A DNA stretch of 46,225 nt, from assembly GCF_003334315.1 (NCBI RefSeq), contig NZ_QOWR01000037.1; one strand, given 5' to 3'. Origin of the DNA: Escherichia coli. GTDB lineage: Bacteria > Pseudomonadota > Gammaproteobacteria > Enterobacterales > Enterobacteriaceae. Made by a program: the position numbers and the translations under genes. The first letter of the stretch is position 1; each line of letters begins with the position of its first letter. Shown here piece after piece: positions 1-835 of the stretch. The notes under the pieces are model-generated. The model did no database searches. It worked only from the letters and a program-made list of their open reading frames with translations, and was not told the origin of the DNA.

Positions 1-75
1 CGCGAGGCATCGTCTTAACGAGGCACCGAGGCGTCGCATTCTTCAGATGGTTCAACCCTTAAGTTAGCGCTTATG
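1..75. mobile_element. IS186 terminal fragment (right end only; rest of element lies off the left edge)
   Basis: Bases 53-75 read CAACCCTTAAGTTAGCGCTTATG, which I recall as the 23-bp IS186 terminal inverted repeat (it contains the CTTAAG and AGCGCT palindromes). It ends 22 bp from the hokC stop, as in K-12 where IS186 sits just downstream of hokC. Recalled, not searched. Confidence 0.55.
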
Positions 76-97
76 GGATCACTCCCCGCCGTTGCTC

Positions 98-250
98 TTA
101 CTCGGATTCGTAAGCCGTGAAAACAGCAACCTCCGTCTGGCCAGTTCGGATGTGAACCTCACAGAGGTCTTTTCTCGTTACCAGCGCCGCCACTACGGCG
201 GTGATACAGATGACGATCAGGGCGACAATCATCGCCTTATGCTGCTTCAT
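98..250 (-). CDS. hokC: HokC (Gef) type I toxin, 50 aa small membrane peptide
   Basis: In-frame within the 98..340 minus ORF: MKQHKAMIVALIVICITAVVAALVTRKDLCEVHIRTGQTEVAVFTAYESE, the Hok/Gef family sequence; ATG at 248-250 (revcomp). Confidence 0.85.
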   Translation of the reverse strand: MKQHKAMIVALIVICITAVVAALVTRKDLCEVHIRTGQTEVAVFTAYESE

Positions 251-307
251 TGCTCTCTTCTCCTTGACCTTACGGTCAGTAAGAGGCACTCTACATGTGT
301 TCTGCAT
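98..307 (-). CDS. mokC: MokC, regulatory reading frame overlapping and co-terminal with hokC
   Basis: Same frame as hokC, starting upstream at M-QNTCRVPLTDRKVKEKRA; the hok/mok arrangement is established for this family. Confidence 0.65.
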   Translation of the reverse strand: MQNTCRVPLTDRKVKEKRAMKQHKAMIVALIVICITAVVAALVTRKDLCEVHIRTGQTEVAVFTAYESE

Positions 308-353
308 ATAGGGGGCCTCGGGTTGATAGTAAAATATCACTCGGGGCTTTTCT
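299..353 (+). ncRNA. sokC: SokC antisense RNA (antitoxin of hokC/mokC); position approximate
   Basis: Placed by the known hok/sok architecture (antisense overlapping the mok start region) and by recalled K-12 offsets; segment ends in a T-rich tract CGGGGCTTTTCT. Not independently verifiable here. Confidence 0.4.
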
Positions 354-835
354 CTATCTGCCGTTCAGCTAATGCCTGAGACAGATAGCCTCAAGCACCC
401 GCCGCTATTATATCGCTCTCTTTAACTCATTCTGTTTTATCGATTCTAATCCTGAAGACGCCTCGCATTTTGATGGCGTAATTTTTTAATGATTTAATTA
501 TTTAACTTTAATTTATCTCTTCATCGCAATTATTGACGACAAGCTGGATTATTTTTGAAATATTGGCCTAACAAACATCGCCGACTGACAACAAATTAAT
601 TATTACTTTTCCTAATTAATCCCTCAGAAATCCTCACCTTAAGCTATGATTATCAGGGCTTAGGGTCACTCGTCAGCGCTTACAGCCGTCAAAAACGCAT
701 CTCACCGCTGATGGCGCAAATTCTTCAATGGCTCGTAAAAAACGAATTATTCCTACACTATAATCTGATTTTAACGATGATTCGTGCGGGGTAAAATAGT
801 AAAAACGATCTATTCACCTGAAAGAGAAATAAAAA

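Follow-up and report, generated by a model that had tools for sequence, protein, structure and literature searches.

IS186 in the 3' hairpin of hokC in an Escherichia coli contig: anatomy of the disrupted locus and predicted refolding of its mRNA

Type I hok loci and the targets of IS186

The gef/hokC locus of Escherichia coli K-12 was described some decades ago (Poulsen et al. 1989, 1991; Pedersen and Gerdes 1999, as cited in PMC3562002 and PMC12214031). The K-12 gef/sof allele is reported to be still transcribed and regulated by its antisense RNA (Sof), its transcript ending inside the IS (PMC3562002), and hokC mRNA is reported to be present in K-12, with 9% A-to-I editing (PMC12214031). For hok of R1, the model holds that a fold-back element is inhibitory and keeps the full-length mRNA inert and stable, and that its removal activates the mRNA; a set of closed pairings characterises the full-length inert form, and a set of open pairings the 3'-trimmed form, which is active and accessible to Sok (PMC9841398).

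Separately from this work, mutation-accumulation lines defined the IS186 target as GGGG(N6/N7)CCCC, with 19 N6 sites in K-12 and insertion in either orientation (PMC5009759), and an IS186 site is known in the lon promoter (SaiSree et al. 2001, as cited in 10.1101/527788). In addition, hok homologues were found near several insertion hot-spots in two species, and their adaptive disruption was proposed (preprint 10.1101/527788). Here we compare with these systems a hokC locus at the left end of a 46,225-nucleotide stretch of E. coli DNA (hereafter the window), in which an IS186 end lies next to the toxin gene.

Anatomy of the IS186-hokC junction

The window begins within the IS, of which only 75 nt are visible (Table 1). 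Database comparison of bases 53-75, which the first-pass annotation of this DNA had taken for an IS186 terminus, returned the exact 23-bp terminal repeat of IS186/IS421 as the reverse complement of CATAAGCGCTAACTTAAGGGTTG, and the same exact relationship between CAACCCTTAAGTTAGCGCTTATG and the left-end CATAAGCGCTAACTTAAGGGTTG holds in each full IS186 copy examined. Over window positions 1-900 the earliest mismatch to K-12 is at 303. A full 1,339-bp IS186 with an intact transposase gene occupies the same position in UMNK88, K-12 and TUM18780, UMNK88 being identical to the window over 1-420; a chance or partial IS match of 75 nt was ruled out by the 75/75 identity together with these full copies in close relatives. 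In the window orientation, as judged from the full copies of relatives, the insL transposase gene is on the + strand, convergent with hokC. Inverted IS186 insertions agree with the window only from 53 onward, and IS-free genomes part from it precisely at 75/76. Over 44.9 kb, the window strain shares about 99.2% identity with UMNK88, and the first 420 bases of the window recur without a change in many animal and human isolates.

The gap between the IS186 end and the hokC stop spans 76-97 and measures 22 bp, just as had been noted at first pass, and 10 bp of it are target-site duplication. The right copy of GGATCACTCC is the one at 76-85, the second copy lying beyond the far end of the IS and outside the window. 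The MG1655 record sets the IS186A boundary 3 bp further out, so that the gap would be 19 bp; the two values are a matter of boundary convention and refer to the same sequence. Within the residual 3' UTR, positions 90-84 form the 5' arm of a hairpin and 83-78 the loop, and its 3' arm is reduced to the two initial C (77-76).

Table 1. Features of the hokC region of the window. mRNA positions are numbered from the 5' end placed at window position 400
Feature	Position	Strand	Basis or remark
IS186 right end (= IS421; IS4 family)	1..75	+	75/75 identical to K-12 IS186A
IS186 23-bp terminal inverted repeat, CAACCCTTAAGTTAGCGCTTATG	53..75	+	exact reverse complement of left-end repeat CATAAGCGCTAACTTAAGGGTTG
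Target-site duplication, 10 bp, GGATCACTCC	76..85	.	same 10 bp at both IS ends in UMNK88, K-12 and TUM18780
Residual hokC 3' UTR, 22 nt, GAGCAACGGCGGGGAGUGAUCC	76..97	-	alignment to L003, the IS-free O157:H7 allele
hokC (gef) toxin gene, 50 codons + stop, intact	98..250	-	stop 100-98; Pfam HOK_GEF PF01848
mokC, intact in-frame 69-codon upstream extension of hokC	98..307	-	ORF; K-12 mokC b0018 at the same position
hokC mRNA 5' leader	248..400	-	Rfam RF01794 'sok', 119.8 bits against a gathering score of 59, full model
dcb	mRNA nt 112-121 = window 289-280	-	predicted pairings
sokC antisense RNA gene	299..357	+	transferred from K-12 annotation 16952-17010, offset 16653
mokC Shine-Dalgarno (SD)	mRNA nt 81-87 = window 320-314	-	predicted pairings
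ucb	mRNA nt 52-58 = window 349-343	-	predicted pairings
tac	mRNA nt 1-12 = window 400-389	-	predicted pairings
TATAAT -10 hexamer, hokC promoter	407..412	-	read by eye; -12 to -7 from inferred 5' end 400

Both reading frames, reported as intact at first pass, were indeed found to be so by translation: HokC (50 aa) is identical to K-12 HokC, and MokC differs from its K-12 counterpart by the single substitution L2Q. HokC matches Pfam HOK_GEF over the whole model (E=2e-24, model 1-42/42), and the NCBIfam Hok models gave significant matches with scores under their curated cut-offs (for the Hok subfamily model, E=2e-12 and 46.8 bits, the cut-off being 73); in genomes with the identical sequence the product is annotated as WP_000809168.1. 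The locus therefore holds the small (about 50 aa) hydrophobic toxin ORF of the Hok/Gef type, and the overlapping upstream mok frame, through which hok would be translated, is represented by mokC at 307..98.

The Rfam RF01794 match stops at the hokC AUG; it thus delimits the leader and puts the 5' end of the mRNA near 400, and it is from the start of this model that the 5' end at 400 was taken. A promoter scan of this region yielded no consensus sigma-70 sites, and the sokC promoter was not located. A putative cis-antisense Sok RNA is indicated by RF01794 and by the K-12 coordinates. The complement of the sokC span is mRNA nt 44-102, in which ucb, the mokC SD and the mokC AUG fall; the span carries three differences with respect to K-12 (303, 313 and 328), which leave the complementarity unaffected because the RNA is cis-encoded.

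The hokC Tyr47 codon stands in a UACG context at window 109-112 (minus strand), about 35 nt from the IS junction. It is probably the Tyr-to-Cys site recoded by A-to-I editing in PMC12214031, where the edited hokC tyrosine is numbered 46 by alignment.

To the far right, at 46023-46225, the window closes with the left end of an IS1 (terminal repeat GGTGATGCTGCCAACTTACTGAT, followed by the start of insA), inserted in the 3' end of a yabP/EspY1-like pentapeptide-repeat ORF (45243-46043); the IS1/pentapeptide-repeat junction was not found as one contiguous match in any of the complete genomes of the collection described below. A window bounded by IS186 on the left and IS1 on the right would fit a short-read contig broken at repeats. 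Between these ends, the UMNK88 annotation and the ORFs of the window place in the nhaR to rpsT interval (3005-6975) a hypothetical gene, a fimbrial usher gene in truncated form and the espX1 type III effector gene, the last split into two ORFs. An Rfam match to the ES003 sRNA (87.4 bits, full model) lies at 16194-16246, directly upstream of carA. From caiF to caiE (21368-21540), a 90-bp unit is repeated in 1.9 copies with a 95% match, one unit more than in UMNK88, and overlaps an Rfam match to naRNA4, a REP-derived nucleoid-associated RNA (21422-21492).

The first-pass annotation had also anticipated the loss of a 3' element, to be sought by alignment with IS-free strains. The IS-free allele examined was that of the O157:H7 strain Z1626 (locus L003), from the hokC stop to the dnaJ stop, whose mRNA-strand 3' region reads UAA-GAGCAAC-GGCGGGGAGUGAUCCCCGCC-ACUUUACAGGUGCUCGCAUAU-CUUCAACGCACCC-UAUUUUUACCCAG-GCCUGCCCACGGGCAGGCUUUU. 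Alignment with this allele locates the hairpin 3' arm, the fold-back element (fbi) and the terminator beyond the IS, in agreement with that expectation. Specifically, IS186 splits the mRNA hairpin GGCGGGG-AGUGAU-CCCCGCC and cuts off fbi (CUUCAACGCACCC), whose predicted partner is the 5' end of the mRNA and which lies 35-47 nt past the insertion point in IS-free alleles, so that the IS displaces it by 1.34 kb; the third displaced element is the terminator, common to dnaJ. Next to hokC, the window allele lacks the rest of the hairpin 3' arm, fbi and the terminator. An intact fold-back surviving between the hokC stop and the IS would run against the first-pass view, and none is there: the duplex scan of tac against the read-through RNA gave no fold-back candidate in the 22-nt gap, and a 3' element pairing with the 5' tac is missing from the window allele. 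The locus is thus a hok/sok member by descent, but a disrupted one.

Predicted folding of hokC mRNA and the question of silencing

All the folds reported here are predicted at thermodynamic equilibrium for transcripts whose ends were assumed; in R1 hok, metastable 5' hairpins and folding during transcription also matter. For the 400-nt IS-free hokC mRNA, the minimum-free-energy fold pairs nt 1-12 (GGGUGCUUGAGG) with nt 352-364 (probability 0.97-1.0) and includes the GC hairpin (nt 311-330) as well as a 3'-terminal terminator hairpin. In this closed fold ucb (AAGCCCC) is predicted to pair with the mokC SD (mean probability 0.79), and the closed tac/fbi fold beats a forced tac/ucb fold by 5.6 kcal/mol. 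The pre-insertion sequence of the window haplotype, rebuilt from UMNK88 by removing the IS and one copy of the duplication, folds like the L003 mRNA. Equal pairing of the 5' and 3' ends was obtained with the hokE and plasmid-hok mRNAs rebuilt by removal of the IS, the hokE mRNA having a C7-G in place of the U7-A pair.

When the IS is present, the predicted optimum is tac/ucb for RNAs of 360-644 nt (mean probability 0.73-0.99); the 905-nt RNA has another optimum, yet tac/ucb still reaches a probability of 0.92. In the IS-bearing 400-nt RNA the mokC SD finds its partner at nt 114-118, with an SD/dcb probability of 0.69. The comparison of folds with and without the IS, which had been proposed at first pass, hence predicts an IS-free mRNA closed by tac/fbi and an IS-bearing mRNA opened by tac/ucb and accessible to SokC.

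A different outcome could be imagined if the IS186 repeat (CCCAUAAGCGCU on the mRNA strand) paired with tac and partly replaced fbi, leaving the mRNA locked. When the RNA is cut at nt 340, one arbitrary length, the optimum does pair nt 2-12 with nt 325-335, and this tac duplex, at -12.9 kcal/mol, falls between the natural fbi (-17.8) and ucb (-10.7). However, the duplex contains three G-U pairs, similar tac duplex energies arise by chance elsewhere in the IS, and in all the longer RNAs tested (360-905 nt) the locked fold is 7-9.4 kcal/mol worse than the optimum, with a probability of about 0. Being optimal at a single truncation length, the repeat was ruled out on energy as a replacement fold-back, and we give this alternative next to no chance. 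More generally, the duplex scan returned IS-internal matches to tac of -17.9 to -18.8 kcal/mol, on a par with the true fbi alone; duplex energy by itself fails to discriminate fold-backs, and full-length folds do so.

The complementarity of the IS186 terminal repeat to the hokC tac is a chance one, mRNA nt 325-335 corresponding to window 76-66. Another portion of the repeat, GGGUUGA, is complementary to leader nt 74-80, a pairing that occurs in the optimum predicted for the read-through RNA of 400 nt. Since the repeat is identical at both IS ends, hokC has one and the same sequence next to it whichever way the IS is turned.

As to where a read-through transcript might end, the only terminator-like site that a scan found on the hokC-mRNA strand lies about 550 nt inside the IS. 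For the K-12 gef transcript, a length of about 644 nt and an end 200 bp beyond the stop are given (PMC3562002); these two figures disagree with each other and with the Rfam-inferred 5' end.

The refolding bears on the statement, made at first pass, that the locus is probably silenced and that the fold-back element is needed for activation. The second part does not hold as such, since in the hok model the element is inhibitory and its removal activating (PMC9841398). As for the first, complete or transcriptional silencing, whereby the IS would abolish hokC expression, has the backing of reviews that repeatedly describe the K-12 genes hokA, hokC and hokE as 'suggested to be inactivated' through insertion elements (PMC12214031). 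Nevertheless, the IS lies downstream of the gene; the promoter with its -10 box, the leader, the SokC region and the reading frames of mokC and hokC show no disruption; transcription and antisense regulation have been reported for the K-12 allele (PMC3562002), with a detectable and edited mRNA (PMC12214031); and the loss of an inhibitory element predicts no silence. We therefore hold silencing in this sense to be very improbable, and 'silenced' is too strong a term for the IS-bearing hokC. Because the fold-back element is inhibitory, what has most likely been lost, by analogy with R1, is the stable and inert mRNA pool rather than expression.

All together, we favour, with a probability of roughly three in four, the reading that this is a hokC/mokC/sokC type I locus in which IS186 sits in the loop of the post-stop hairpin, the mRNA being opened and its latent pool lost. 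The proposed mechanism starts from features observed directly (the build of the locus, its missing 3' elements, the target motif and the recurrent insertion), passes through a conformational switch that is a prediction, and reaches effects on expression and stability that we infer from the R1 model and second-hand literature. In this scheme, IS186 has transposed into the loop of the GC-rich hairpin after the hokC stop, leaving promoter, leader, SokC, mokC and hokC untouched and moving the hairpin 3' arm, fbi (CUUCAACGCACCC) and the dnaJ-shared terminator 1.34 kb away from the mRNA body. Without fbi, the mRNA 5' end (tac, GGGUGCUU) would pair with the internal ucb box (AAGCCCC), and the mokC ribosome-binding site would shift from ucb to its dcb partner, giving an 'open' conformer that R1 hok mRNA reaches only after 3' trimming. 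Such a transcript could at once be bound by SokC and decay, or be translated at a low level, and no stable, inert full-length mRNA pool would build up. Delayed activation of the post-segregational-killing type would be lost, while transcription and antisense control would stay.

Recurrence of IS186 at hok hairpins and comparison with known systems

The intact site in O157:H7 is GGGGATCACTCCCC, whose core GGGG-ATCACT-CCCC is a perfect match to GGGG-N6-CCCC. Read on the + strand, it forms the hairpin GGCGGGG-AUCACU-CCCCGCC directly after the hokC stop, with IS186 in its loop, and the core with its adjacent bases is duplicated in relatives as the 10-bp GGATCACTCC, as expected of an IS186 target. 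No further GGGG(N6/N7)CCCC site is present in the 46-kb window. In TUM18780 the IS186 at the same hokC position, flanked by the same 10-bp duplication, is inverted.

To count the states of the site, left-junction probes were run against the 5,426 complete E. coli genomes of the ecoli_genomes collection, which includes many laboratory K-12 derivatives. These probes separate the hokC orientation classes cleanly: IS186 in the window/K-12 orientation was found in 710 genomes, inverted IS186 in 957 and an intact site in 3,801, the three classes summing to 5,468, 42 above 5,426, as some genomes were counted in two classes. IS186 therefore occupies the hokC site in about 30% of complete E. coli genomes. 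Earlier junction probes, which mixed both hokC orientations with hokE-type junctions, were dropped; an earlier probe had also given 1,108 genomes, against 1,017 records at a coverage of at least 80%.

The same element recurs at paralogous loci. The homologous hokE hairpin carries IS186 in strain 500010 and, in the opposite relative orientation, in K-12, with a 10-bp duplication in each, and the hok hairpin of plasmid pLR-64-1_1 carries IS186 with a 10-bp duplication. The third K-12 copy occupies the terminator hairpin GGGG-ATAATT-CCCC after nupC, so that all three IS186 copies of K-12 (hokC, hokE and nupC terminator) are found in GGGG-N6-CCCC hairpins, two of them in hok hairpins. Recurrent insertion at several hok paralogues and in both orientations is accounted for by the hok 3' hairpin being itself an IS186 target, and the paralogous loci share the hot-spot because the motif is the stem of a conserved hairpin of the hok-family 3' UTR. 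In the literature accessible on IS186 and hok, we did not find this link stated. The pLR-64-1_1 copy (locus L006, 1219-2555) is 1,337 bp long instead of 1,339 bp, with its transposase annotated as frameshifted, and is apparently a decayed copy at the same hairpin-type target.

A target of this kind raises the possibility that the insertions are neutral, hokC being inert as a killing module either way and IS186 being there because the hairpin is among the few GGGG-N6-CCCC sites of the genome, and that the IS changes the RNA with no phenotype and no selection. Such an account is compatible with the predicted RNA switch and differs from the preferred reading only on whether the switch matters. 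According to a preprint summary, the IS-free hokC of ECOR24 shows neither post-segregational killing nor rifampicin activation (bioRxiv 10.1101/2025.08.07.668861); since that allele is reportedly inactive too, inactivity cannot be put down to the IS alone, and the loss of fbi may be without phenotypic consequence. Neutrality also agrees with the exact motif match, with the location of all three K-12 copies in hairpins of this kind, among them an ordinary terminator, with the comparable frequency of the two orientations, and with the absence of visible decay of hokC: alleles with the IS in one or the other orientation encode the same HokC, whose CDS is annotated as intact in all the rows listed. 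Against it stands the adaptive disruption proposed for hok homologues near hot-spots in two species (10.1101/527788). On balance we judge neutrality possible, though on the unlikely side.

Target specificity is a simpler explanation than adaptive disruption, and the present data cannot separate them. The further idea that the conserved hok hairpin is a structurally constrained landing pad, at which chromosomal and plasmid hok paralogues capture IS186 again and again in either orientation, each capture flipping the mRNA from latent to open, the persistence of IS186 at about 30% being selected and not just neutral, seems to us improbable. If it were true, relief from a latent toxin reservoir would be a possible selective reason, and hok transcription into the IS, modulating transposase expression, an alternative one.

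Returning to the preferred reading of an opened mRNA with no latent pool, the closest known system is K-12 gef/sof, that is, hokC/sokC with IS186A (b4412/b0018/b4413), in the same position and gene order dnaJ-IS186-hokC-nhaA. Window and K-12 share the IS, its orientation, the 10-bp duplication, the 22-bp gap and an identical HokC; in 76-420 they differ by four substitutions (303, 313, 328 and 386), that of MokC L2Q included, and the structure of the junction is the same. On this point, as on the IS186 end and the lack of a surviving fold-back, the first-pass interpretation stands, including its proposal that the K-12 arrangement recurs here, whereas silencing and the activating role of the fold-back find no support in the form given.

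With R1 hok/sok, compared here through its published model only, the locus shares a toxin of the Hok/Gef type, a presumably coupled frame upstream of it and a cis-antisense RNA that spans the translation start of this frame, and the closed and open conformers predicted for IS-free hokC use the same named element pairs as R1 hok (PMC9841398). The difference is that the window allele has neither fbi nor terminator in reach, so that the closed form is predicted to be unavailable to it. With the general IS186 hot-spots (PMC5009759), the window site shares the N6 motif, the core-centred 10-bp duplication and the use of both orientations; it differs from them in that its motif is the stem of a conserved hok-family RNA hairpin. 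In K-12 hokE/sokE-IS186B and in the hok of pLR-64-1_1, IS186 has entered the homologous hairpin 21-22 nt past the stop and displaced fbi. These are paralogous loci with other hairpin loops (AGCAAU or AGUAAU; AGAGAU), and in K-12 hokE the relative orientation of the IS is opposite to that in the window hokC.

In conclusion, the arrangement is already known: it is the K-12 gef/hokC-IS186A locus in another strain, in the literature since the 1990s, and no long-standing question is opened by it. An 'intact' hokC annotation can nonetheless hide the loss of 3' control elements, as in about 30% of complete E. coli genomes, and the hot-spot explanation is a useful counterweight to the reading of recurrent IS insertions near hok as adaptive inactivation. 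With respect to the systems compared above, the additions are modest, namely the population frequencies of the three states of the site and the identification of the hok 3' hairpin as the target of IS186.
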